From the NCBI GenBank assembly GCA_033856175.1, contig JAWVFK010000018.1, positions 3,104 to 67,103 on the forward strand: a stretch of 64,000 bases of DNA, read 5' to 3'. Shown in pieces: positions 4,379 through 47,600 of this stretch; position 1 is the first letter of the stretch; each line of letters opens with the position of its first letter. The position numbers and the translations under genes were made by a program. The DNA comes from Solirubrobacterales bacterium (GTDB taxonomy: Bacteria; Actinomycetota; Thermoleophilia; Solirubrobacterales; 70-9). The notes under the pieces were generated by a model, which searched no databases, was not told where the DNA came from, and saw only the letters and a program-made list of their open reading frames with translations.

Positions 4379-5032
4379 CTAGTACGGCGGCAGCTCGTCG
4401 TACCAGCTGCCGAGGGCCCGGAACGAGCGCCAGAACTCCTGCTTGGCGCCCTGCTCGTCGAGCGAGACGTCGATCTCGGGCACGAAGAGGGCGTCGACGG
4501 TCGGGGTAAGGCTCTGGATCTCACCGGGCCGGGCCTCGATCGGACGCGCCAGCGGCAGCGAGAGGGCGTTGAGGACGCTCAGAGCGGCCTCCCCCATAAC
4601 GACGACCATCCGCGGCGCGATCACGGCGATCTCCTCGACCAGGCGGGCAACGCACTCGGGCGCCGCCAGCGAGGGATCGGCGACCGGGCACTTGACGCAG
4701 AGCGTGCCGTAGACGGCGAGCGGGTCGATCCCGAGCCGCTTGAGGCTCTTCATCAGAGCGTTGCCGGAGCGCCCGTAGAAGGCGACGCCCTCCTCGATCT
4801 CGGCGGCGGTCGGCGAGTGCTTGAGCATCAGGATGTCGGCCTGGGGATGGCCCGATCCGAGCACCGGCATCAGCTTGCCGCGGGGGCAATGCGGGCAGGC
4901 CTGCAGCTCACGGGTGAGCTGGTTCAGCTCTCGAATTGCCCGCTCGAGGTACTTCTCCTGGATTTCGTCGTCGGTCGTCCGCACTGCCGGAATACCTCTT
5001 GGCGACGGCGCGGCGTCTCCCTGCCGGTGCAT
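4379..5032 (-). CDS. uracil-DNA glycosylase superfamily protein (family 4/5-like, divergent)
   Basis: GSGHPQADILMLKHSP..AFYGRSGNAL resembles UDG family-4 motif A (GxGxxxAxxMxxGExP) and the F-x-G-x-x-G motif. The start ATG shares one base with the TGA stop of the upstream gene (TGATG). Confidence 0.6.
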   Translation of the reverse strand: MHRQGDAAPSPRGIPAVRTTDDEIQEKYLERAIRELNQLTRELQACPHCPRGKLMPVLGSGHPQADILMLKHSPTAAEIEEGVAFYGRSGNALMKSLKRLGIDPLAVYGTLCVKCPVADPSLAAPECVARLVEEIAVIAPRMVVVMGEAALSVLNALSLPLARPIEARPGEIQSLTPTVDALFVPEIDVSLDEQGAKQEFWRSFRALGSWYDELPPY

Positions 5033-6993
5033 CAGCTCTTGCCGTCGCCGCGGCCCGGCGGTGCGGCGCCCCGGCGAGCCCGCCGCTGGCCGCCCCTGAC
5101 CGGTCGCGCGTTCGCGACCTTGCGCTTCGGCGCCTTCGGCCGCCCCGCCGTCTGCAGGAACTTCAGCGTCTGGACGTAGACGAGGTTCTTGTGCTTCTGG
5201 ACGATGTCGGCATCGCGCATCGCCTCGAGGAACTCCTCGGGGCCGTCGAAGTCCCGCACCCTGATGCGAACGCTGCCGAGCCCCTGGGCGACGTGGCTGT
5301 CCGAGCCGGCGCCGGCGACGATCCCGTACTTGGCGGCGAAGCGGACGGCCTCCTCGTTGAAGGCGGTGACCGCGATCCGCGGGTTGAAGACCTCGAGGAT
5401 GTCGATCTCCTCGACGACGTCCAGCAGATGCTCGTAGTCCGGCACCGAGTGGAAGCGGTCGAAGGGATGGGGCATGTAGACGAGCCCGCCCTGGGCGCGG
5501 ATCGCGGCGATCGTCTCGGCCATCGTCAGGCCGCGCTCGATCTTGCGCTCGAGAAAGAGGCCGATCACCTCACCCTGCTCGGCGGTCTTGATCTCCTCGG
5601 CGACGATCACCTCGATGCCGTCCATCCCGGCGGCGATCTCGCGCGCCTCGAGCGCGCCCGAGACCTCGTTGTGGTCGGTGATCGCGATCGCGCCGAGGCC
5701 ACGGTCGCGCGCCGTCTCCAGCAGGACCTCGACGGGCGTCGCGCAGTCGGGCGAGTGGTCGGTGTGCATGTGCAGGTCGACGTCGATGGTTGGCCGCGAG
5801 GCAAGCCGCCGGCGTATGGCGGCGCTGCCTTCGGAGACGTGGCGGCGGCCGACGACGCGGCCGTAGACGCCCTCGAGCTCGTCGGTGACGTCGGACCAGC
5901 TGCGTGAGGCGGCCCGCGAGCCGGCGTCGCGGAGCTCCCGGCGCAGCGCCGGGCTCTCGGCCAGCCGCACGAGCTGGCCGGCCAGCGTGTAGGGGTCGCC
6001 GGGAGGAAAGAGCAGCCCGCGCTCGCCTTCGCCCAGCAGCTCGGCATAGCGCTCGAGGTCGGATGCGACCGGCACGGCCCCGCCGGCCAGCGCTTTGCGG
6101 ATCAGCCCCGGCGCCGAGCGCGGACCGCCCGAGGCCGCGCAGAGGACATCGGCCGATGCGATGAGATGCTCGAGCGGGCCGGCCGCCGGGCCGACGAAGT
6201 CGATCCGCTCTCTGAGGGCGCGGGCGATCCGCGGCGGGGCGACCGCAGGATCGGGCAGCCAGACCGTCGCTCGCCATTCGAGCTCCAGCGGCAGCCGCCG
6301 CAACGCGCGCAGGAACAGTCGCAGCGCGCCGCGCTCCTCCTCGGCGGCGAAGAGGATCTCGAGGCGGCCGTCGTCGTTGCGACGCCGGGGCTCGCTATCG
6401 GCGCCGGGCGGCAGCAGCTCGTAGCCGCCGGGAAAGAAGCGCTCGAGCCGCTCTGCCGTGGTCTTCGAGCAGGCGGTGCGGGCATCGAGCCGGCCGAAGA
6501 AGATCTCGACCAACGGCCGCGCGACCTGGGTCGAGAGCACGCGCTCGGCAGGGTCGTGAAAGGTGCCGACGTTGAGCGAGTGCGAGTGGCGCAACGCAGC
6601 CGCCGAGGTGCTCGGCGCGAACGGCTCGTGGACGTGGACGACATCGATCGCCAGGCTGGCGAGCAGCGTCTCGAGGCTGCGGCCGACATCGATCGAGACC
6701 GAGGCGCCGCGCGAGCTCGAGCCGCTCGGCAGCGACAGCCCGGGGCCGACGCAGACCAGCTGCGGCTTGCCGTCCGCCGGCAGGATCGCGGCTGGGTCGG
6801 CGCCAGCGGCTCGAATCAGCCGGCGCCCTTCGCGGATCTCGGCGCGCGAGTCCGAGGGCGCGACGATGAGGACGCGGTGGCCGCGGGCGGCGAGCTCCGC
6901 CGAGGTGCGCTCGACGAACTCGTTGACCTCGTGCCGGTCCCCCCACTGCTGCGGGGTGACCTGCGCGATCGTCAGGCGGCCGTCGTCAGACAC
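5032..6993 (-). CDS. PimA-like GT4 glycosyltransferase fused to C-terminal PHP phosphoesterase domain
   Basis: The N-terminal ~400 aa parallels mycobacterial PimA (VHVHEPFAPSTS, GTFHDP, EERGALRLF, GGAVPVASDL). The C-terminal IDVDLHMHTDHSPDC..AITDHN..MPHPFD..GSDSH is PHP metal-binding histidine/aspartate signature. The ORF-track start (7758) would overlap ino1, so I take GTG 6993 (VSDDGRLTIAQVTP). Confidence 0.75.
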   Translation of the reverse strand: MSDDGRLTIAQVTPQQWGDRHEVNEFVERTSAELAARGHRVLIVAPSDSRAEIREGRRLIRAAGADPAAILPADGKPQLVCVGPGLSLPSGSSSRGASVSIDVGRSLETLLASLAIDVVHVHEPFAPSTSAAALRHSHSLNVGTFHDPAERVLSTQVARPLVEIFFGRLDARTACSKTTAERLERFFPGGYELLPPGADSEPRRRNDDGRLEILFAAEEERGALRLFLRALRRLPLELEWRATVWLPDPAVAPPRIARALRERIDFVGPAAGPLEHLIASADVLCAASGGPRSAPGLIRKALAGGAVPVASDLERYAELLGEGERGLLFPPGDPYTLAGQLVRLAESPALRRELRDAGSRAASRSWSDVTDELEGVYGRVVGRRHVSEGSAAIRRRLASRPTIDVDLHMHTDHSPDCATPVEVLLETARDRGLGAIAITDHNEVSGALEAREIAAGMDGIEVIVAEEIKTAEQGEVIGLFLERKIERGLTMAETIAAIRAQGGLVYMPHPFDRFHSVPDYEHLLDVVEEIDILEVFNPRIAVTAFNEEAVRFAAKYGIVAGAGSDSHVAQGLGSVRIRVRDFDGPEEFLEAMRDADIVQKHKNLVYVQTLKFLQTAGRPKAPKRKVANARPVRGGQRRARRGAAPPGRGDGKS

Positions 6994-7055
6994 TGGCCGA
7001 GAATAGAGAGGGGCGCGCGGAGGGCCGACCGCCGCGCCGCGCCGGGCTACCCGGG

Positions 7056-8231
7056 CTACTGCTCGGCGCTGACCGGCGTCTCGCTGGCGGCCGGCTGCTG
7101 GGGCGCCGTGCCGCGGGCGTTCTTGGCGATGAACTCCTCGGTGTCGTCGCGCGCCTGCGAGTCGGGCCGCTGGTTGTGCGGCGACTTCATCAGGTAGCTC
7201 GAGGGGCCGTCGAGCTGGCCGGCGACGCCGTTGTTGAGCGCCAGCTTGACGATCCGGACCGCGTCGATGACGATGCCGGCCGAGTTCGGCGAGTCCCAGA
7301 CCTCGAGCTTGAGCTCGAGGTTCAGCGGCACGTCGCCGAAGGCCCGGCCCTCGACGCGGATGTGGGCCCACTTGCGGTCGGTCAGCCACGGCACGTAGTC
7401 GGAGGGGCCGATGTAGACGTCGTCGGCCGGCAGCTCGTGGTCCATGATCGAGGTGACGGCGTTGGTCTTCGAGATCTTCTTCGACTCGAGCCGCTCGCGC
7501 TCGAGCATGTTGAAGAAGTCCATGTTGCCGCCGACGTTGAGCTGGCTGGTGCGCTCCATGCGCACGCCGCGGTCGGCGAACAGCCGCGCCAGCTGGCGAT
7601 GGACGATCGTCGCGCCGACCTGGGACTTGATGTCGTCGCCGATGATCGGCAGGCCGGCCTCGCGAAAGCGGTTGTCCCAGTAGTCCTCGCGGGCGATGAA
7701 GACGGGCAGGCAGTTGACGAAGCCGACACCGGCGGCGAGGGCCTGTTCGACGTACCACTTGGTCGCGTCCTCGGAGCCGACCGGCAGGTAGCAGACGAGG
7801 ACATCGGTCTTCGTCTCCTTGAGGATGCCGACGATGTCGGCGGTCTCGCCCGGCGCCTTGGTGATCTTCTGCTTGAGGTACTTGCCGAGGCCGTCGTGGG
7901 TCATGCCGCGCTCGACCCTGACGCCCAGCGACGGCACCTCGGAGAAGGTGATCGTGTTGTTCTGGCCGGAGAAGATCGCCTCGGAGAGGTCCTTGCCGAC
8001 CTTGTCGACGTCGATGTCGAAGGCCGCGGTGAACTCGATGTCGCGGACGTGGTAGCCACCGAGATCGACGTGCATGAGACCCGGGACCTGCTCGTTCGGG
8101 TCGGCGTCGCGGTAGTACTGGACGCCCTGCACGAAGGAGCTCGCACAGTTGCCGACGCCGACGATGGCGACGCGGACCTTGCCGTCGTCAGCGCGCATGC
8201 CGTTGCTTGATACGCCGTTTGTCTTGCTCAT
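7056..8231 (-). CDS. ino1: myo-inositol-1-phosphate synthase
   Basis: 391 aa. [22 protein letters not shown] (NAD fold), ..LPVGSE.. and [11 protein letters not shown].. are typical bacterial/archaeal Ino1. Confidence 0.9.
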
Positions 8232-34751: not shown

Positions 34752-34824
34752 GCCCCCGTAGCTCAGTTGGTAGAGCAGCGCCCTTTTAAGGCGAAGCGCG
34801 CCGGTTCGAGCCCGGCCGGGGGCA
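34752..34824 (+). tRNA. tRNA-Lys (TTT)
   Basis: gcccccgTAGCTCAGTTGGTAGAGCa..CTTTTAA anticodon loop (TTT)..gccggTTCGAGCccggc cgggggc a; hand-folded cloverleaf, 73 nt, no encoded CCA. Confidence 0.85.
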
Positions 34825-35048
34825 CTTGCAGCCGGGGCGGATTCGGACCACGACCTTGGGATCGTGAACTGTCCAGACCATGGCAGTCTCAGTTCGCTCA
34901 AGCGCCACCAATACTTGTCTGCGTGGCCTCGTGCGAGGCTTTTGCTTGGCGAGATCTCCGACATGGGGTCACGCAGAAGGGGAGGAACTGCAGATCTAGG
35001 CGCATCCGGGACCACCGGCACAGGCGCAGCTGGCTGTCGACCCAGCCG

Positions 35049-36401
35049 CTACCAGTAGATAGCGACGATCTCCGAGTCGATCAGGTGCTCCTCTCCCTCG
35101 TCGCCTCCTTCGCTGGCGGTGGCAAACAAACCGTCCTGGGAGGCGCTGGCCCTATAGCCGTGCTCGGACATCAGGCTGTCGCGCAGGTCTGAAAGGCGAG
35201 CTCGATCGAGCTGCCGCCCGGTCCGGTCCTGGACACGCTTGGTGATCGAGGCGAGGGTTTTTCGCTGCTGCTCGACGGATGAAAAATCAGGTTCAAGGGC
35301 GTCCAGTCCCACCGCCTCTGTGTCTTCCTCGGACCACTCCGTCTCCGCCTCGGCGGCGACGGCTTCGGCGTACTCGGCGATGAGCGCGCGCCCCTCCCCC
35401 GCCTGCGGGGATTCGGAGCCGGCTGCTCCCCTGGCTACGCCGGCGAGGAACTCCGGTCCCACGTCATTGATTGCGGCGGCGACGCTCGGGACGAATCGCT
35501 GGAGCAGGTCCACGACCTTCACGGGGTGCCAGCTATCCCTAAGTCCGTCCGTATTGAGGCGGAACATCACGAAAAATCTCGAGTCCGAGAAGAGGACGCG
35601 GCGCAGGTCACGCCAGAACAGCTCCGCTTCCGCGACCGCGACGACGTGCAAGGGCTCGCGATCAACATCCACGCCGTCATCGAGCTTGTCGAGGAGCTCC
35701 TTCGAGGCGAGGAACTCCCGGGCGTCGATCACGATTCGCTCGTATCGCGCGGACTCACCCCGTATCGGGACCAGGCCTGAAAGGAGCTCGTCGAAGACCC
35801 TGTTGACACCCCGGGCCTGAGCCACGTCCCGCGGGTCCATGGTGAAGAACTCCGGCGCCTCCTCGAAGAAACCGAGCATCGTGGCGATCATCAGGCTCGC
35901 CTGAAAGATCGACTCGGCGTCGAGGGTCACCTCGAGCTCGAGGAGTTCGCCACGAGCGAGTTTGGCGGCGTCGACCAGATGGGCCGTCTTGTCGTCATCG
36001 CGAATCTTTCTCAGATCGTCGAGCGACGCGGCTGCGGGGACGTCCCCCGCCCCGACGCTGTCGTGAATCCGCATCTTTCCGGTCTCATACTCGACGAGGT
36101 CCTTGAACGACGCTTGGACATTCGCTTTGCGGACTACCTGAGTGCCGCGCGTCCGCGAGCCCTCGAGCTGGGAGCGCAGGCCAGCGCCGCCGAGGTGCGT
36201 GTTCACGCCGACGGAGGCTCCAACCGAGCTGCGGGTGGTCTCTGAATCCGTGTCGATCAGCTCGGTTGGGATCGCTCCCTTGCGGGAGGCCAGCAGGCTA
36301 TAGACGCTTACCTCATCGAGATAGACGAACTCACGTCTGTCGCCTTTGGGCTGCTCCTGGCCCCGCACCTTCGCCATCATCCTTTTGATCCACTTGATCA
36401 C
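35049..36401 (-). CDS. hypothetical 450-aa protein, translationally coupled partner of the AAA+ ATPase
   Basis: GTG 36401 overlaps the AAA+ stop (GTGA) and has GGAGGA 6 nt upstream; ATG 36380 is an alternative. The ORF-track start 36572 lies inside the AAA+ gene. No catalytic motif recognised. N-terminal REFVYLDEVSVYSLLASRKG, a Gly/Ser-rich stretch, and an acidic C-terminus ending IVAIYW. Confidence 0.7.
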   Translation of the reverse strand: MIKWIKRMMAKVRGQEQPKGDRREFVYLDEVSVYSLLASRKGAIPTELIDTDSETTRSSVGASVGVNTHLGGAGLRSQLEGSRTRGTQVVRKANVQASFKDLVEYETGKMRIHDSVGAGDVPAAASLDDLRKIRDDDKTAHLVDAAKLARGELLELEVTLDAESIFQASLMIATMLGFFEEAPEFFTMDPRDVAQARGVNRVFDELLSGLVPIRGESARYERIVIDAREFLASKELLDKLDDGVDVDREPLHVVAVAEAELFWRDLRRVLFSDSRFFVMFRLNTDGLRDSWHPVKVVDLLQRFVPSVAAAINDVGPEFLAGVARGAAGSESPQAGEGRALIAEYAEAVAAEAETEWSEEDTEAVGLDALEPDFSSVEQQRKTLASITKRVQDRTGRQLDRARLSDLRDSLMSEHGYRASASQDGLFATASEGGDEGEEHLIDSEIVAIYW

Positions 36402-37633
36402 TGTTGGTCCTCCGTGCTTCGGCGGGGCGCCTGTTCCAGCTGGCGTGCGCGGCTGTCTCGAACCCGTTCGTAGCCACCCCAGCAATCCTCTGTCTTCAGC
36501 TGCCCCCGGCCATCCGCGACCGCGAGCAGCGCCGCCTCGTTCCAGATCGCCGCGAGCTGAGCCGAGGTCCACCCTGCCGTCAGCCTCCCCAGCTCGTCCA
36601 ACGGCGGGCTATCAGCGACGTTGAGGCGCCTAGACGCCGCCGCGAGGATATTCTCGCGGTCCTCGTCCATCGGGTAGGGGAACCGAATCTCCCAGTCGAA
36701 GCGCCCAGGCCGCCGCAACGCCTTGTCGATGTCGTCGACCCGGTTGGTCGCCGCTACGACGATGACCTTGTCATCGCGCGTGAAGCCATCCATCAGCCCG
36801 AGCAGCTGGGCGACGACGCGGCGCGAGCCCTCGTAGGACTCTTCTCGTCGGCCGGCGACGCTATCGATCTCGTCGAAGAAGATGATCGAGCGGTCCTGCA
36901 TTGCGGCGTCCTCGAAGACGCGCCGGAGAATCGCCTCGCTGTCTCCCTGCCATTTGCTGAAGATCTGCGGCCCGTTGATCACATAGAAGGCGGCCCCCGA
37001 CTCCTTGGCGATGATCCGGGCGAGCATAGTCTTCCCGGTACCCGGGGGCCCCGTCATTAGCACCCCCCTTACCGGACGGGCTCCCGTCTGCTTGAGGAGT
37101 GCCTTCTTTCCCGGAGAAAGCTCGATCAGCTCCTTGGCTCGGTCGACGACGCTCTCCATCCCGCCGTAGTCATCGAACGTCTCGGTCAGCTCGCTGGGAT
37201 CGACCTTCAGATGCTCGATCGACACACCATCGTCGTCCCTGAATAGCGAGATTGACTCGCGCGTTAGAACGGCGACGACCTCGCCGTCCTTTAGCTCGAC
37301 CGTGTTTCCGACCTCATAGTCGGTGTCATTGGTCGGGGTGAGCACGAGGCTCCCGTTCACCGAGACGATGGTTTTCTCGTCGCCTTTGGTGCGAATGACC
37401 CCAACGTCCGGCGTGTCGGGCCAGAGCCGATCGGGCGCAGGAACGGCTATGGACTCGTCGGGATCAACTAATAGGAGGTCGCCGACCTCGAACTCAAACG
37501 GTGTCGCAGACGCCTCGAGGGATGCCACCTTGCCTGAGCGAAATTCGACGAAGAGCTCGTAGCCAGCGGCTTCGACCGCCCGAACCCTCGCCAGCGCTCC
37601 CTCTGCAGTCCGTGTCGCGCGCACCGCCTCCAT
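36398..37633 (-). CDS. classical-clade AAA+ ATPase (Cdc48/FtsH-like single AAA module) with unassigned ~190-aa N-domain
   Basis: Walker A GPPGTGKT, Walker B IIFFDEID, second region of homology ATNRVDDIDKALRRPGRFD; 411 aa. Confidence 0.85.
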   Translation of the reverse strand: MEAVRATRTAEGALARVRAVEAAGYELFVEFRSGKVASLEASATPFEFEVGDLLLVDPDESIAVPAPDRLWPDTPDVGVIRTKGDEKTIVSVNGSLVLTPTNDTDYEVGNTVELKDGEVVAVLTRESISLFRDDDGVSIEHLKVDPSELTETFDDYGGMESVVDRAKELIELSPGKKALLKQTGARPVRGVLMTGPPGTGKTMLARIIAKESGAAFYVINGPQIFSKWQGDSEAILRRVFEDAAMQDRSIIFFDEIDSVAGRREESYEGSRRVVAQLLGLMDGFTRDDKVIVVAATNRVDDIDKALRRPGRFDWEIRFPYPMDEDRENILAAASRRLNVADSPPLDELGRLTAGWTSAQLAAIWNEAALLAVADGRGQLKTEDCWGGYERVRDSRARQLEQAPRRSTEDQQ

Positions 37634-38216: not shown

Positions 38217-38255
38217 TGACTTTCGCGCCTTTCTCGCCTGACAGCTGGCGAATTC

Positions 38256-38331
38256 GAGTTCGTTATGACGAATCGTAGCAGGTTTTTCGATGTATGCAAG
38301 AATGGCGAAGAGGAGTTCGTGATGACGAATC
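38256..38331. promoter_or_regulatory. duplicated operator-like element in divergent promoter region
   Basis: gagttcgtTatgacgaatc (38256-38274) and gagttcgtGatgacgaatc (38313-38331): a 19-nt direct repeat with one mismatch. Each copy contains the inverted repeat TTCGT-N4-ACGAA. The copies are 57 bp apart. Confidence 0.55.
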
Positions 38332-39176
38332 AGGTCAACGAGCGGCAGTTATCTGTCTTCGAGCAGCTTCGTGACTCGGAGCCGAGCCTGGCCGACACCG
38401 AAATCGTGCGCAGGCTCTGCGAGCAGCTTCTGGATGAGGCCGACGTGCGGCCGCCGGTCCCGGTCGAGATGCTTGCCTCGCTGCGCGGGATCGCCAAGGT
38501 GCAGTCGGACGATCAGCCCTACGCGGGAATGTTGAGTCCTGAGGACGGGCGACTGGTGGTTACGGTCAGGCGAGGAGACGGGCACCGGCGCCGGCGTTTC
38601 ACCGTCTGCCATGAGGCGGCGCACACGCTCTTTCCGGGCTTCAGCGAGCGCCGCCAGTACCGCTGCAACGGCGAACGGACGTGGACCGAGAAGATGTGTG
38701 ACCTAGCGGCCGCAGAGCTGTTGCTCCCGAGGCGCTTCTTTGAGGCCGACTTGAGGCAGGCGGGCTTCGGGCTTGAGGCCGTAGAGGAGCTCGCCCGCGA
38801 CTACCAGGCGAGCATCGAAGCGACGGCGCGGCGAAGCGTCGCGCTCTGGAGCGCGCAGGAGGCGATGCTGATCGTGCTGCGCGCCCGTCACAAGCCGTCG
38901 GAGGCCGGACGCGAGGACGAGCTGCCGCCGAAGCTCAGGGTCGAGTATTCGTTCGGGCGCGGAGATTGGCCCTTCGTACTGCGCCACAAGTCCGCGAGCG
39001 CGAGCGGGCTCGGACGCGCGCTTGAGGGGGAGATCCTGGACGAGATCAGCGAGATCGACGAGCTCTGCGTCGGTTCGGCCGGCCGGGTGCGGGTCCAGGC
39101 ACGGCGCTACGGCGCCGATGGACGTGTGATCGCCTTGATCAACAAGACCACCGACAACGCAGGAGGTGAAGGTTGA
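38322..39176 (+). CDS. ImmA/IrrE-family zinc metallopeptidase (DUF955-like) with C-terminal extension
   Basis: HEAAH (HExxH) in RFTVCHEAAHTLFPG followed by AAELLLPRRFF, typical of ImmA/IrrE. ATG 38322 has GAGGAG 6 nt upstream. The ORF-track ATG 38265 is in frame and cannot be excluded. Confidence 0.8.
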   Translation: MTNQVNERQLSVFEQLRDSEPSLADTEIVRRLCEQLLDEADVRPPVPVEMLASLRGIAKVQSDDQPYAGMLSPEDGRLVVTVRRGDGHRRRRFTVCHEAAHTLFPGFSERRQYRCNGERTWTEKMCDLAAAELLLPRRFFEADLRQAGFGLEAVEELARDYQASIEATARRSVALWSAQEAMLIVLRARHKPSEAGREDELPPKLRVEYSFGRGDWPFVLRHKSASASGLGRALEGEILDEISEIDELCVGSAGRVRVQARRYGADGRVIALINKTTDNAGGEG

Positions 39177-39580
39177 CCACGAAGGAGAGCGTGGGGAGCC
39201 GGATTAAGAAACGTCGCGAAGAGAAGGGGATGAGCGCAACGAAGCTAGCTGAGAGGGCCGGCATCTCGAAGAGCTATCTATCGGAGCTCGAAGGCGCGAA
39301 CGGCGGGGCAAAGAAGCCATCGGCTGAGCTCCTGTATGAGATCGCCAGCGCGCTCGGCGTGGCGATGTCCGACCTACTGGGAAGGCCGATCATCAACAAT
39401 GGGGCCAGCAATAAAACGCGGCCGCCGTCGCTGATCAAGTTCGGGAAGAAGATGGGACTTCCCGAAGCGGACCTGCAGATGCTCGAGCAGATCCAGTTCC
39501 GCGGCGAGCCGCCCCAGACGCCGGAACGCTGGAGCTTTATCTACCAGGCGATCAAGGGCAGCGCCTCGATGGACGCGTAA
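39173..39580 (+). CDS. XRE-family HTH transcriptional regulator
   Basis: IKKRREEKGMSATKLAERAGISKSYLSELE is the Cro/C1-type HTH. TTG start overlapping the ImmA stop (TTGA); 135 aa. Confidence 0.85.
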   Translation: MTTKESVGSRIKKRREEKGMSATKLAERAGISKSYLSELEGANGGAKKPSAELLYEIASALGVAMSDLLGRPIINNGASNKTRPPSLIKFGKKMGLPEADLQMLEQIQFRGEPPQTPERWSFIYQAIKGSASMDA

Positions 39581-39851: not shown

Positions 39852-40685
39852 TCACGCCAGATTCAGAGCGGCTTTCAAACCGCTCACCACTCGGTACATG
39901 TGCTGGCCAACATTCTTTCGCAGCCGAGCCTCGGCGGCAGGCGTTCGCTTCTGGTGCGCCGCGCCAATACGATCCTTGTTAATTCGGCTTAGCACCTGCG
40001 CGAGCACGGTATCCGGGTGATTCGGCGTCTGGATGTTTGAAAACGCAATGGCCAGCCGACCTAATGACATCCTGTCGATCGTCTGATTAGTCAGAGCCCG
40101 ACGCCGGCCCGCCTTATTCAGGACCGTAATCCTGCCATCCGCAATCCCTTTCCGCAAGTACTTTGCACTCTCGATCTGCAGAACCTGACAGGCATCCTCG
40201 AACCCTTCGCGCCATTGTGATCGGTCGAATTGTTCATAGACCGGGCCAAGGAGCCGTTTGAGTTTCTTCGGGAGAGAGCCACGCACGGGAAGCTCAACGT
40301 TTACCGCAAGATCGCGTGCCACCAGCGCTTCCCGAACACCGTGCTTATCCGAGACACACACTCCTACGCCCATCTTCTGGAGACGGGCGTCATCCTCATT
40401 GCTGCGGAGAACGGAATCTGGCATTGCGAGCACGATTCGTGTGTCAGTCGTGCATGACCGACCGAAGCGAGACCATTCCTCAGCTCGCTCCAGCGATAGC
40501 TTGCCAGTCACTTCGACAAACACGCGGGTCGGCGGCCTGCGACATCGTAGAGTCGGGGTGTACGGGTATGCCGGATCGGCCGGTTCAGCTTTAACCGAAT
40601 ACCCATTGTCCGCATACCACGATGCCACGGCCTCGGCATGCTCCAATAGCTCTTCCGGAACCGTCAGAAAGCCGTGTCCGGCCAT
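39852..40685 (-). CDS. hypothetical 277-aa protein; N-terminal alpha/beta domain plus C-terminal helical domain with HEPN-like Rx4H
   Basis: The ORF starts 4 nt after the ParB-like gene's stop. R239-IGAA-H244 (NKDRIGAAHQKR; nt 39954-39971) fits the HEPN Rx4-6H motif near the end of an all-helical region. The N-terminal strands (TLRCRR, RVFVEVTGK, RIVLAMPD, VGVCVSD) suggest a nuclease-like alpha/beta fold (weak). Confidence 0.55.
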   Translation of the reverse strand: MAGHGFLTVPEELLEHAEAVASWYADNGYSVKAEPADPAYPYTPTLRCRRPPTRVFVEVTGKLSLERAEEWSRFGRSCTTDTRIVLAMPDSVLRSNEDDARLQKMGVGVCVSDKHGVREALVARDLAVNVELPVRGSLPKKLKRLLGPVYEQFDRSQWREGFEDACQVLQIESAKYLRKGIADGRITVLNKAGRRRALTNQTIDRMSLGRLAIAFSNIQTPNHPDTVLAQVLSRINKDRIGAAHQKRTPAAEARLRKNVGQHMYRVVSGLKAALNLA

Positions 40686-40689
40686 CGGA

Positions 40690-41631
40690 TTACCGCTTCA
40701 GAACTTTAGCGATCACGTGTTGCAGCTCTTCCAACATGTTGCGAAACTCATCATCCACTTCGAACGACCGCTCCAGTTGCGCGTGGAGGCGGGTCAACAG
40801 TCTCGAGACAAGCTGCTGCGACCCGTGCTGATAGTCGATCCCTTCGACAGTGGACTCGAAGGCGCGTTTGATCGTGAAGCGCGGTTCCGTGATCAACCGT
40901 CGCGTAACTTTGCGTGCTGTGGCGGCCGAGACCTGCTCACGATCAACGGCACGACCAATTCGCATGAGCTGGCGGGGCTCCACCGTGTTGGTCTCGGTCC
41001 GATCCTTGAACTTATCCACTAGCGCCCTGCGAAGCTGCTCTTCTTCATCGCGGTTAATGATCTCCCGGCTACGAAGTGCAGCTGCTCCCTTACTCGCCTC
41101 CAACACATGATCAACAGTGAGGCTCTGCTGTGAGCGTGGCAGCTCCAGCTGGGCCATCAGTTCGTTGTGGTACTCGTCAGGCAGGGCCAGAAGCTGTCGG
41201 AGGCGACGTACCTCGCCCCGTGAGATCGAAGCGATCTGGGCCAATTCCTTCTCGCTCGGCTTGCGGCCCTGCCGCTGAGCGTATTCGTGCTCAAGCTCCT
41301 GCAACTTGTAGGCGGTCGGCAGAGGGTCCCAATCCTTGCGAGCGTTGTGGATCGCGAACATCATCATGATGTTCTGGAGCCGATCGGGCTCGGCTTGGAC
41401 GACGACCGGGATGCGGGGCAGTCCGAGCTTCAAGGCACATCGCCAGCGACGCTCTCCGTCGAGTAGGACATGTCTCCTGCCCTTCTCGAAGACACTGAGA
41501 GGCACGAGGACTCCCTGCAGCTTGATGCTGTCCTCAAGCGCTTGAAGCTCAGCCTCATGAAAGATGAGCCGAGGGTTATCCGGGTTCGGATCGATGTCCC
41601 TCGGGGCAAGAAGAGTCTGCGAGCTAGCCAT
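40690..41631 (-). CDS. ParB/Sulfiredoxin-like N-terminal-domain protein with helical C-terminal extension
   Basis: IDPNPDNPRL..LEDSIKLQGVLVPLSV..LLDGERRWRCA carries the ParB-box GxRR motif; 313 aa. No partition partner (parA) is nearby. Confidence 0.8.
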   Translation of the reverse strand: MASSQTLLAPRDIDPNPDNPRLIFHEAELQALEDSIKLQGVLVPLSVFEKGRRHVLLDGERRWRCALKLGLPRIPVVVQAEPDRLQNIMMMFAIHNARKDWDPLPTAYKLQELEHEYAQRQGRKPSEKELAQIASISRGEVRRLRQLLALPDEYHNELMAQLELPRSQQSLTVDHVLEASKGAAALRSREIINRDEEEQLRRALVDKFKDRTETNTVEPRQLMRIGRAVDREQVSAATARKVTRRLITEPRFTIKRAFESTVEGIDYQHGSQQLVSRLLTRLHAQLERSFEVDDEFRNMLEELQHVIAKVLKR

Positions 41632-41718
41632 ATCGCGACCCGCTCAATGCCTCCGCGCAGGCCGATAATCGAGCGCCCTCCATCCAGCCAGAGAGGCCAG
41701 AAGTCCTTTGCAGGGACC

Positions 41719-41731
41719 TCAAATGATTTGA
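41719..41731. promoter_or_regulatory. perfect AT-rich palindrome upstream of dam-like gene
   Basis: TCAAAT-g-ATTTGA at 41719-41731, 14 nt before ATG 41745. It overlaps tgataaat (an extended -10-like element) at 41729-41736. Confidence 0.35.
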
Positions 41732-41744
41732 TAAATGCAGCACC

Positions 41745-42626
41745 ATGTCGATTTCCTTGCCCTCAGCCGACGCCGACCAGCGTCACGATATCCGGAAGCC
41801 ACCTGCTTATCAGATACTCAAGTGGATCGGCAACAAGCAGCGCTTTGCGGCACTCATCGCAAGGAACCTGCCCGCCGAGTACGGCCGCTATATCGAGCCG
41901 TTTGTGGGGACGGGGGCCGTGCTTGCAGCGATGCAACCGGAGAAGGCGGTCGCCGGGGATACGCTCAAACCGCTGATCGATCTTTGGAAACTGGTGCAAA
42001 ATGACCCTGACGAGCTAGCCGCCCACTACAAGATCTGCTGGGAGGCCCTGCTGTCGCATGGCAAAGCAGCATTCGCCGAGATCCTAAGCCGCTACAACGC
42101 GGAACCAAACCCAGGGGATTTGCTGGCTCTCAGCCGGTCTTGTTATGGCGGGGTCGTGCGGTTCACGAAGAACGGGACAATGAGCACGCCGATGGGACCG
42201 CACCGCCCAATCGACCAGATGCGGCTTAGGGAGCATCTCTATGCGTGGCAGGAGCGCGTGTCCGAAACTAAGTTCAGATGCCAGGACTACTCGGTGAGCC
42301 TGGCAGATGCCGCGGCAGGCGATGTCGTCTATTGCGATCCTCCATACGCCTATAGCCAGGCAATCTTGTACGGGGCGCATTCGTTCGACCTCGATGCACT
42401 CTGGGCGAGCATCCAGACCACCGTTGATCGTGGCGCATTGGTGGCCGTATCGATCAATGGCCACCGTAGAAATGGAAAGCTCAAGCTATCTACCCCAATC
42501 CCCGACGGGATCTTTCAGCGGGAGATGCTTATCGAGCGAGGGGGTTGCATGCTCCGGCGCTTCCAGCTAGCGGGCAAGACAGTCGCAGGTGAGCACGTAA
42601 CGGATCGTCTGCTCTTTAGCTGGTAG
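41745..42626 (+). CDS. Dam-type (D12 class) N6-adenine DNA methyltransferase
   Basis: ILKWIGNKQ (K-W-x-G-x-K), motif I EPFVGTGAV, motif IV DPPY (VYCDPPYAY); 293 aa. Confidence 0.88.
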   Translation: MSISLPSADADQRHDIRKPPAYQILKWIGNKQRFAALIARNLPAEYGRYIEPFVGTGAVLAAMQPEKAVAGDTLKPLIDLWKLVQNDPDELAAHYKICWEALLSHGKAAFAEILSRYNAEPNPGDLLALSRSCYGGVVRFTKNGTMSTPMGPHRPIDQMRLREHLYAWQERVSETKFRCQDYSVSLADAAAGDVVYCDPPYAYSQAILYGAHSFDLDALWASIQTTVDRGALVAVSINGHRRNGKLKLSTPIPDGIFQREMLIERGGCMLRRFQLAGKTVAGEHVTDRLLFSW

Positions 42627-42816: not shown

Positions 42817-43983
42817 CTACCGATTGCCCTTGGCGCGGTTGTGTGTCACGCACAGCATCTCGCAGTTGGCGAGATCCGTGTCTCCGCCCTTCGACCAGGC
42901 CGTCACGTGGTCGGCGTCCATCTCGTCCTGCTTGTAGATACGCGTCTTGTTGGCGCTGTCACTGATGGCGCATAGCGGGCAGTTCGACCCGCCGTCGACC
43001 GTCGCCTTCTGAGTCTGCTGCTCGTAGGCAGCCCGCTTCGTGTTGTCGTCGAACAGCCGGACCGCCAGCAGCTGCTTGTCCTTCTTGCCGCCGAGCAGGT
43101 ACTCGTAGATCCCCTTGATGCTGATCACCGCCGGGTCAGCACGAAGCGTATCGACGTCGGCGTCGATCGCCGCCGCGTTGTACGAGGTCGAGTGGTACGT
43201 CTCGTACAGCCGTCCCCACTCCAGCCCCCGCATCTCTCTGTCGGGTGGGCGCGTGAAGACACTGCCGATCCAGTCGATGACTGAGGTGAAGTACGTCTTC
43301 AGGCCGGCGATGTCGCCATCCTGGCGGTGCTGCGCGAGGTAGGCGTCGACGCTCGCCCCCTGGGAGGCCGAGGCCCAATTCAGCGCAACCTCCAAGACCT
43401 CCTGCCGTTTGGGGTCGCCCTTGATGTAGGAGGACCACTTCTGCATGTTTGCGTTCTGCGAATTGCTGAATTCGGCCTTTGCCTTCGTGATGAACGGCCC
43501 GGAGTAGATCGCGTTGAGCACTTCCTGACGGTTCAACGGAATCCCCGCGATGTTAATCGTCTGGAACCAGTCCTTGATCTCTTTCTCGTCGCCCCGGCAG
43601 TGCCATACGAGCAACTTGCTTTCCATGAGCTTCTGCTGCACCTCTCTCGGTAGTGACGAGAACGTTTGCTCCTTGCCATCGACGCGGATCGCAAACTTGC
43701 CGGTGACAAACCGCCCGATGCTCGTGATTCTTTGCTGACCGTCAAGGACCTCCAGACGGTCGCCGACGACGTTGAAGTAGATCAGGCCGATCGGGTAGCC
43801 TTTGAGCAGCGACTCGATTACGGAGACATCCCTCCTTCCGTCGTTGTAAATGTAATTGCGCTGGTACTCGGGCTGGATCACGAGCTTGCCGGCCAGACCG
43901 AATAGCCCCTTGCCCTCGAGCTCGTTGTAAACGAACCCCTCGACAATCTTCTCGACCGTGTAGGGGTGGAGGTCCGTCTTCAC
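42817..43983 (-). CDS. DUF262 (GmrSD N-domain/ParB-like NTPase) - HNH endonuclease fusion
   Basis: [11 protein letters not shown] and DGQQR are DUF262 signatures. The C-terminal [28 protein letters not shown] is an HNH with a Cys pair. The GTG start overlaps the upstream MTase stop (GTGA). Confidence 0.82.
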
Positions 43984-45281
43984 GAAGCGCCCCTCCGACG
44001 GATGAACAGCCGCTGGTAAGCAGATTGGATCACGTGGCCTTTATCGTTGATGAAGTAGTTCTTCTTACCGTCATTCATGGCAAGGTTCGCGTTCTCGTTG
44101 GTCTTGCTCCCCGACGAACCAGTTGGCGTGCCGTCCTGGCGCATTTCCCGGTAGTCATCGTACTTTTTGAAATCCGGAACTTCATCGTGACATCCGCGCT
44201 GGGTCGCTCCGAGGATCTCGAACTGGTCGGGATCATGCTTATTTAGGAAGGTAATCGGCACGCCAATGATCCCGTCGTAGTCGCTGGGAATCGCGTCGCT
44301 GAACGGAACTTCTATGGCGTCATAGTTGTCATACGCCCTGTACCCGATACCCCGAACCTCCTTGTGCTTGGAGAATTTCTTGTTGTCGGCCATCGACATG
44401 AGCTGGAGCGGTTCGTGTCGACGGCCGTGGTCAATGTTGGTAAACCACTGGACGCCGGAAACCCGAATCATGCCCTCGCGCCGGTCGGTTGCGGCCGCCG
44501 TGTCCTCATAGGGACTCCCAAAATGGGTCGCATTTCCTGGGAACCCCTTGCCAAGCCACATCCGGCTCTGCTGGATGAGGGGGAAGATGTCTGAATACGT
44601 GATTGCGTTCTGATGGCCAATAATTGCGAACTTTGCACCGCCCTGAATGATCCACTCGACGAAGTGCCGGAAGAGGCTGAACGGAGGGTTGGTGGTGACG
44701 ATATCGGCCTCGTCCCGCAGTGCTGTCACTTCCTCGCTACGAAAGTCGCCGTCACCTTCGAGGTAGTCCCACCGGAGGTCGTCGATGTTGATGACCTCGT
44801 CGTCATTCATGTCCTTCCTCTCCAAGACGAACTTCTTGCCGTTAGTCCGTGTCTTGGTGGCGTCGAACTTTGCGTCCTCTGTCTCAAACAGCGTTGGCGC
44901 GTAAAACTCCCCAGCCGGGTGGCTGTCGGGCGCATATGACGTCGAGATCAGTTTCTTGAGCCCGAAGTTTGTGAAGTGGAGCGCGAAGAACTTGGTGAAG
45001 TTGCTCCACTCCGGATCGTCGCACGGCAGCAGGATCACCTTGTCACGAAAAACAGCCGGGTCGTATTCAATGTAGGCGTTCATCTCGCGCTCGACGTCAG
45101 CCCACTGGGTGTAGAACTCGTCCTTCCTGGCAGCCTTCGCCGCGTTTAAGCGGCGCCCCTTACCCTCGCTTGCTGTCGTGGAATGCACGCGCCCGACGAT
45201 AGTGGAACGGGGGGACGTGATCGGCAGGTTCTGCAGGGAGCATTGCTGCACGCTCTTATGGCCGAGCGTGCACGCACTCAC
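43980..45281 (-). CDS. N6-adenine DNA methyltransferase, EcoRI-methylase-like
   Basis: KDEFYTQ near the N-terminus and catalytic TNPPF ([11 protein letters not shown]). Lowest GC of the window. The true start may be downstream of ATG 45281 (for example the in-frame GTG near 45187). Confidence 0.75.

Positions 45282-45483: not shown

Positions 45484-47600
<2,117 letters not shown>

Follow-up and report, generated by a model that had tools for sequence, protein, structure and literature searches.

What kind of system is encoded by two overlapping genes in the genome of a Solirubrobacterales bacterium? The genes lie in a stretch of 64,000 nucleotides (nt) of contig JAWVFK010000018.1 (assembly GCA_033856175.1, positions 3,104 to 67,103 of the forward strand), called the window in what follows. 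The first encodes an AAA+ ATPase of 411 amino acids (aa) and the second a partner protein of 450 aa. An initial annotation, made from the sequence alone, proposed that the pair is an immune module and either a divergent relative of the Dodola system or a system not described before. Dodola consists of DolA, a DUF6414 protein, and DolB, a ClpB-like ATPase, and the Bacillus cereus FM1 system protects against phage SPP1 (Millman et al. 2022, bioRxiv 10.1101/2022.05.11.491447). The first of the two alternatives is borne out, since the partner, like validated DolA, matches Pfam PF19952 (DUF6414) over the full length of the model. The pair is a distinct, widespread and so far unrecognised variant of the Dodola class.

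A conserved two-gene module

Both reading frames are as first described. The ATPase translation contains GPPGTGKT, IIFFDEID and ATNRVDDIDKALRRPGRFD, the motifs of a classical AAA module, and the 450-aa partner has the N-terminal segment REFVYLDEVSVYSLLASRKG, a stretch rich in Gly and Ser, and IVAIYW at its end. The ATPase stop and the partner start share the letters GTGA, with GGAGGA 6 nt before the GTG. This arrangement can be read directly from the sequence and it recurs elsewhere: the two genes overlap by 4 nt in 53 of 79 related loci and their junction lies between -8 and +9 nt in 72 of the 79. The overlap is therefore not a chance property of the window copy.

Relatives were sought in one genome per species (185,579 species representatives) and 80 related loci were fetched. 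The pair family is present in at least 154 species representatives and at least four bacterial phyla, both lower bounds, and the related loci span Actinomycetota, Chloroflexota, Acidobacteriota and Proteobacteria. More distant pairs were found on haloarchaeal plasmids in plasmid searches. In all 80 DUF6414 loci an ATPase homologue, including its specific N-domain, is located directly upstream on the same strand. The same linkage is seen from the other side, with DUF6414 directly downstream in all three ATPase orthologues that were looked up. Distant plasmid copies (haloarchaeal, Corynebacterium, Tsukamurella) are paired alike in four of four cases, a PF00004 ATPase being followed by DUF6414. 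These counts uphold the proposal that the two genes co-occur as a module, with a coupling that is obligatory and favours stoichiometric expression.

A larger unit, a four-gene operon, had also been suggested. It would have included two small open reading frames (ORFs) of 92 aa and 68 aa upstream of the ATPase gene, but neither has a homologue in the 80 related loci and neither matches a Pfam, PADLOC or NCBIfam model. No third conserved gene was detected, the commonest family among 146 immediate neighbours being seen five times. The unit therefore consists of two genes, and it is almost certain that these form a module.

Architecture of the ATPase

The ATPase belongs to the classical AAA clade. 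It matches Pfam PF00004 with an E-value of 4.2e-42 and also AAA_lid_3 (PF17862), with AAA_2 reaching just 5e-4. In a search of PDB sequences, residues 149-377 matched VAT/p97/Cdc48 AAA domains (1e-100, about 50% identity), and both VAT D1 and VAT D2 were aligned. Walker A and B, the aromatic pore loop 1, the second region of homology (SRH) with arginine fingers and the lid are all present. Invariant in 31 orthologues are Walker A K201, Walker B D254/E255, the pore loop K227-W228-x-G230, the DGF inter-subunit motif D282-G283-F284, the sensor N297, R308 and R311; the pore-loop and SRH sequences, SKWQG and ATN...RRPGRFD, are likewise invariant. An active ring that threads substrates would require these residues.

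The N-terminal domain, in which the initial annotation recognised nothing, does have recognisable relatives. In an AlphaFold2 model of residues 1-180 (mean predicted local distance difference test score, pLDDT, of 80.3), strands 13-65 and 76-124 form two small beta-barrels. With Foldseek, the top PDB matches are tandem-OB domains from Mpa, the mycobacterial proteasomal ATPase, and from Rhodococcus ARC (7px9, 2wfw, 3fp9, 5kzf), with a probability of 1.00 and E 4e-4 but template modelling (TM) scores of only 0.30-0.39. The NCBIfam models pup_AAA and PAN also align, starting at residue 79-113. Judging from the model, the ATPase is probably built like the proteasomal ATPases, as a single classical AAA ring carrying a collar of tandem OB folds.

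It could then be asked if this ATPase, together with a cofactor, serves housekeeping proteostasis like those of the ARC/Mpa/Cpa type and has nothing to do with genetic conflict. The modelled architecture is like that of Mpa and ARC, the host is an actinobacterium, and the NCBIfam PAN and pup_AAA models do align. However, their scores are far under the curated cut-offs (PAN 216 bits vs 500, pup_AAA 122 vs 505). The same is true of the CDC48, FtsH and anti-phage IteA models, and the ATPase therefore belongs to none of these named families. There is no coiled coil ahead of the barrels, as only about 12 residues precede the first of them, and no HbYX or GQYL tail at the C-terminus, which reads ...RRSTEDQQ. 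The family is patchy across phyla with copies on plasmids, its flanks are variable, and in the window the guanine-cytosine (GC) content is under that of the core. Some of the host lineages are not expected to encode proteasomes. Some copies are also disrupted by a transposase or recombinase: insertions of 1.3-2.8 kb interrupt the ATPase gene in three of the 80 loci (Table 1), which suggests occasional inactivation of the cassette by mobile elements. A housekeeping role is extremely improbable.

The DUF6414 partner and its relation to Dodola

The initial annotation regarded the partner as an orphan, which it is not. It matches PF19952 with an E-value of 4.1e-40 (138.7 bits, cut-off 25), and the alignment of residues 23-449 to profile positions 2-283 of 283 covers the full model. 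PF19952 is the family assigned to DolA of Dodola. Homologues of about 450 aa number more than 367, and all have PF19952. A profile of the partner family detected 794 clusters at 50% identity among 1.84 billion representatives, of which 516 at E<=1e-30.

For the comparison with Dodola, DolA (256 aa) and DolB (362 aa) of B. cereus FM1 were taken as references, with sequences given in the supplement to the preprint (bioRxiv 10.1101/2022.05.11.491447). On the Pfam model, validated DolA reaches 78.2 bits over profile positions 2-282. The long form in the window outscores it, yet is unseen by the DolA hidden Markov model (HMM) of PADLOC. What defence-finder tools call "Dodola" is far narrower than Pfam PF19952.

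One reading of these results is that the pair is canonical Dodola and that the differences are ordinary sequence divergence. One component is in the same Pfam family, and the layout of two overlapping genes for an AAA+ ATPase and a DUF6414 protein is the same. However, the PADLOC models detected the validated proteins used as a control (DolA 1.1e-76 with PDLC03837, DolB 4.5e-124 with PDLC03838) and did not match either window protein at E<=1. The ATPases themselves differ. The best Pfam match of DolB is AAA_2 (PF07724, 7.8e-20) ahead of PF00004 (1.4e-9), the reverse of the window ATPase, and hhalign of the window ATPase family against DolB aligned only the P-loop-to-SRH core. The gene order is reversed, as in Dodola DUF6414 precedes the ATPase, and the partner is about 190 residues longer than DolA. 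In the portion of the supplement files available from a DefenseFinder survey of Actinobacteria there is no "Dodola" entry. By sequence, then, the ATPase is not a relative of DolB beyond the shared AAA+ core, being of another clade, with another N-domain and a reversed gene order. The ClpB-like DolB component is missing, and the pair is therefore not known Dodola as currently modelled. Ordinary divergence of canonical Dodola is a very improbable explanation; that the pair is a subtype of the Dodola class is very likely. No description of DUF6414 paired with a classical AAA ATPase, and no phage experiment on the window subtype, was found in the literature searched, nor was a published mechanism or solved structure of Dodola.

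The partner was also modelled with AlphaFold2. An alpha/beta core (residues 100-290) and several C-terminal helices are confident, and the N-terminal 90 residues are poorly defined. The protein carries an Arg/Trp-rich N-terminal tail. Its Gly/Ser/Thr-rich segment has a pLDDT of 28-35 and is the sole region that hhalign aligns between the two DUF6414 subfamilies. The beta-periodic hydrophobic moment of the segment exceeds that of 99% of column shuffles, as does that of the equivalent segment of canonical DolA. Such amphipathicity is compatible with a refoldable hairpin (a pore stem, filament interface or engagement loop), which is only a hint. Variability within the family is greatest in the helical and acidic C-terminal part (residues ~300-435).

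No usable fold relative of the partner was found with Foldseek (best E 0.47 in the PDB and 0.13 in BFVD), and weak OB/SSB-like matches were rejected as noise. Profile searches of PDB sequences with both DUF6414 subfamilies did not give a PDB relative either. The invariant I-Y-W at the C-terminus was considered as an HbYX proteasome-docking motif. This reading was set aside: the tail is modelled as an integral beta-strand and canonical DolA has another C-terminus. Several of the host phyla are also not generally known to have proteasomes.

Genomic contexts of related loci

The genes next to the pair vary between loci and often belong to mobile elements or defence systems. Among the 146 immediate neighbours, Pfam and PADLOC identified integrases, resolvases and transposases on the one hand, and on the other Mrr, ResIII, Type III REase, AriA, PtuA/GajA, GajB, DISARM DrmA/D, BrxH and Old. 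Look-ups of individual loci added a FokI-domain protein, PhdYeFM antitoxins and HEPN-ApeA. This agrees with the expectation of variable rather than housekeeping surroundings; two copies lie alone amid housekeeping genes. The copy of Lentzea alba (locus L091, 1-9638) appears to be within an actinomycete integrative conjugative element, with genes for an integrase, an HTH_17 excisionase, RepSA, FtsK/SpoIIIE and NUDIX.

Such contexts would also be expected of an accessory module of mobile elements which is not immune, for example one for addiction or stabilisation, for exclusion of competitors, or a stress chaperone pair. Copies are found on plasmids, in the integrative conjugative element and beside resolvases, transposases and antitoxins. 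The pair family was not found in 50,697 phage genomes nor, by pattern scan, in IMG/VR, and the window subtype has no known phenotype. On the other hand, the partner is homologous by Pfam to a component of a system that protects against phage SPP1, and the immediate neighbours are frequently bona fide defence genes. In the window itself the pair is placed between a CapP/CapH-type switch and restriction-modification genes. Defence and competition between elements are, moreover, not mutually exclusive. A purely accessory role is distinctly unlikely, and a function in defence is moderately probable.

Possible mechanism

In the favoured reading the first gene would provide a ring-forming, substrate-threading unfoldase and the second, translationally coupled, the long DUF6414 protein, and both proteins would form a complex. 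The ATPase would act as a hexamer, and a complex between ATPase and DUF6414 protein is most likely. ATP-driven threading would then remodel the DUF6414 protein and either keep it inactive or activate it. Upon attack by a phage or foreign DNA, the DUF6414 protein would act as effector and stop the infection or the cell. The Arg/Trp-rich N-terminal tail and the low-confidence Gly/Ser/Thr-rich segment are candidate entry points for the motor. In the window genome, expression of the cassette may be under the control of the CapP/CapH-type, damage-responsive switch.

Several results weigh against this reading. The window proteins escape the PADLOC DolA and DolB models, and the link to validated DolA consists of the shared Pfam model and a weak N-terminal hhalign match. 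The window DUF6414 family aligned to DolA as a single sequence with E 0.048, and to an alignment of 30 DolA sequences with E 0.0023 and a probability of 12%, over the N-terminal 84 columns only. The two DUF6414 subfamilies were not connected by hmmsearch in both directions or by jackhmmer through haloarchaeal and Corynebacterium intermediates. Protection against phages has been tested experimentally only for the distant Bacillus system. The AlphaFold2 model of the partner is moderate (mean pLDDT 65.9), and searches of Pfam, the PDB and BFVD revealed neither a catalytic or toxic domain in the DUF6414 protein nor a structural analogue of it, for which reason its role as effector is a guess. Two copies of the pair stand alone among housekeeping genes. 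With these points counted, a Dodola-class cassette whose unfoldase remodels a DUF6414 anti-phage effector is marginally probable as a whole; the client/effector mechanism taken by itself is tentative and rather doubtful.

Another possibility is that the DUF6414 protein is an adaptor, which binds a phage or plasmid protein and passes this target on to the unfoldase, where unfolding would inactivate it. Defence would then be direct and non-abortive, following the logic of Pup-Mpa or ClpS-ClpA. The ATPase is modelled with the architecture of unfoldases which use adaptors (an OB collar and an AAA ring), the variable C-terminal part of the DUF6414 protein is as would be expected of a target-recognition surface, and the lack of a recognisable toxic domain is consistent with the idea. 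However, the N-domain to which an adaptor docks is usually a specific one, whereas DUF6414 occurs with ATPases of two unrelated types with different N-domains: an alpha/beta one is reported for the Streptococcus Dodola ATPase (PMC11514479), and the window ATPase has the modelled tandem OB. There is no protease partner encoded nearby, so that unfolding alone would have to suffice. Strictly 1:1 coupling in translation is also seen more typically in stoichiometric complexes than with adaptors that act catalytically. Because DUF6414 occurs with threading ATPases of two unrelated clades, the constant need seems to be generic unfolding or threading, by a protein-threading motor of any clade. A pairing of this kind is more easily reconciled with a client or effector than with an adaptor made to suit a single ATPase, and the adaptor reading is unlikely.

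A more specific version of the client/effector reading can be formulated. DUF6414 proteins could be a new class of AAA+-gated effectors, in which the conserved N-terminal strand and the Gly/Ser/Thr-rich amphipathic beta-hairpin are pulled out or refolded by a threading ATPase, after which the protein oligomerises into a membrane pore or toxic filament. Two unrelated unfoldase clades, ClpB-like and Cdc48/Mpa-like, would have been recruited to them independently. This is speculative and improbable.

The observations have some wider consequences. DUF6414, the core family of Dodola, reaches far beyond the Firmicutes-type system, with at least 516 clusters (at 50% identity, E<=1e-30) in Actinomycetota, Chloroflexota, Acidobacteriota, Proteobacteria and haloarchaea. 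This wider family is always paired with a Cdc48/Mpa-like unfoldase, which narrows the mechanisms worth testing. The subtype is missed by the PADLOC models and the available survey supplement lists no Dodola; the defence repertoires of the host phyla may therefore be under-counted. As the ATPase is close to the well-studied VAT/p97 enzymes, mutational and structural approaches are at hand.

The island around the pair

The features of the window that bear on the pair are collected in Table 1. The initial annotation had noted a lower-GC island. The dip is real, although it is shallower over the pair, for which a GC of 57% had been given against about 72% in the core. The actual values are 64.2% for the pair, 61.4% for the island (34.9-45.4 kb) and 70.3% for the rest of the window. 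The profile falls from 35 to 45 kb, and the lowest values of the window (56-60%) are reached at 40-45 kb. A tRNA-Lys gene is located at the edge of the island. No direct repeat links its end with the far end of the island and no integrase gene was found in the island. Scans for promoters and terminators gave no informative signal in the high-GC sequence of the window.

Table 1. Coordinates of the gene pair, its neighbours in the window and insertions in related loci (window positions unless a locus is named)
Feature	Position	Strand	Remarks
AAA+ ATPase, 411 aa	37633..36398	minus	ATG start; predicted tandem-OB N-domain, one classical-clade AAA module, lid
ATPase N-domain, residues ~13-124	37262..37597	minus	two small OB-like beta-barrels (AlphaFold2, Foldseek)
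ATPase AAA module and lid, residues ~187-385	36479..37075	minus	Pfam AAA 191-320, AAA_lid_3 345-383
Coupling junction	36398..36413	minus	GGAGGA 36408-36413, 6-nt spacer, GTG over TGA as GTGA 36398-36401
DUF6414 (DolA-family) protein, long form, 450 aa	36401..35049	minus	GTG start; Pfam PF19952
Gly/Ser/Thr-rich segment of DUF6414 protein, residues ~52-88	36138..36248	minus	low pLDDT, beta-periodic amphipathicity
Two small ORFs, 92 aa and 68 aa	37722-38216	minus	between regulator pair and ATPase; second preceded by AGGAGG
tRNA-Lys(UUU)	34752..34825	plus	ARAGORN; at island edge, abutting pair
CapP-like M78 peptidase	38265-39176	plus	Pfam Peptidase_M78; PADLOC capP 2.6e-26
CapH-like XRE repressor	39173-39580	plus	Pfam HTH_3; PADLOC capH 4.2e-16
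277-aa protein without family match	39852-40685	minus	4 nt downstream of ParB_N gene
ParB_N-domain protein, 313 aa	40690-41631	minus	divergent from D12/Dam methylase
D12/Dam-type orphan methylase	41745-42626	plus	
Insert in ATPase gene	L018, ~4500-7270		large serine recombinase
Insert in ATPase gene	L025, ~5920-7366		IS3-family transposase
Insert in ATPase gene	L029, ~5970-7310		

The ImmA/XRE switch reported beside the pair was identified as CapP- and CapH-like by the PADLOC matches. CapH and CapP are an XRE repressor and an M78 peptidase which induce CBASS and other defence operons upon DNA damage. HTH genes are only 3 of the 146 immediate neighbours in related loci and the association is thus local. 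The switch is a possible local regulator that does not belong to the conserved module, and expression of the pair could respond to DNA damage. Two alternative starts of the peptidase gene are overlapped by a 29-nt direct repeat (38246-38274 and 38303-38331), whose copies are 57 nt apart and share 86% identity. The repeat may serve as an operator or else mark where the peptidase truly begins.

Further along the island, the three genes in 39852-42626 have a GC of 58-59%, the lowest of the island, and the ParB_N gene and its 277-aa neighbour might be another conflict module. At 42817-45281 (minus strand) there is a 4-nt overlap between the gene of an EcoRI-type adenine methylase (Pfam 1.2e-112) and that of a GmrSD_N and HNH nuclease, which matches a Type II REase model of PADLOC (8.1e-86). 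The two look like a restriction-modification pair. Core thiamine genes (ThiG, ThiO) resume at 45.5 kb. The first core gene past the island (45484-46455, minus strand) apparently encodes ThiG with a ThiS-like segment fused at the N-terminus (323 aa), and it is followed by a long ORF with a part like the glycine oxidase ThiO, by reading of the translation.

Comparison with known systems

The proteasomal ATPases Mpa, ARC and PAN share with the window ATPase, as modelled, an N-domain of two beta-barrels ahead of a single classical AAA module, as well as the pore loop, the inter-subunit signalling (ISS) motif (DGF) and the arginine fingers. Unlike them, the window ATPase does not have an N-terminal coiled coil for capture of Pup or substrates, nor a C-terminal beta-grasp or GQYL/HbYX tail for 20S docking. 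It is far under the NCBIfam cut-offs and is paired with DUF6414 on mobile islands, not with proteasome genes.

Two-component defence modules with a classical-type AAA protein are also known in Ietas (IetA AAA ATPase and IetS protease) and in CBASS with TRIP13-HORMA. The PADLOC models of IetA (1.6e-33) and TRIP13 (5.8e-13) match the window ATPase in the AAA core only, and with the NCBIfam IteA equivalog (NF042959) it scores 93.6 bits vs a cut-off of 510. No protease gene, as in Ietas, was found in the window island, and there was no match to HORMA or a cyclase, as in type III CBASS, among the neighbouring genes.

In PARIS the AriA ATPase scaffold sequesters the AriB effector. The likeness would be a functional analogy only: an ATPase oligomer and an effector form a coupled pair, and the ATPase may hold the effector and release it upon a trigger. 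There is no kinship of sequence or fold, AriA being an ABC/SMC-like ATPase and not a threading AAA ring.

The regulatory genes of the window resemble CapH/CapP in that an XRE repressor and an M78 peptidase are encoded divergently from the strand of the pair. They differ in that the peptidase gene is ahead of the repressor gene, that two unrelated small ORFs separate the switch from the pair, and that the association is not conserved across related loci.

The closest comparison is with Dodola itself. The window ATPase is of the classical clade (PF00004, Cdc48/VAT-like, tandem-OB), whereas DolB is ClpB-like (PF07724, HCLR clade), and the modelled all-beta tandem OB is unlike the alpha/beta N-domain reported for the Streptococcus Dodola ATPase (PMC11514479). 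The window DUF6414 protein has two additions, the N-terminal tail rich in Arg/Trp and about 120 aa of helical and acidic sequence. Dodola is mainly found in Firmicutes, and the window family in Actinomycetota, Chloroflexota, Acidobacteriota, Proteobacteria and haloarchaea. What the two have in common is a PF19952 component matched end to end, with an N-terminal (V/I)Y(F/L)DE strand motif and then the Gly/Ser/Thr-rich amphipathic segment. The other protein is in each case an AAA+ ATPase that has one module and an aromatic pore loop. Both systems consist of two co-oriented genes with a 4-nt overlap, and both are found in variable or defence contexts.

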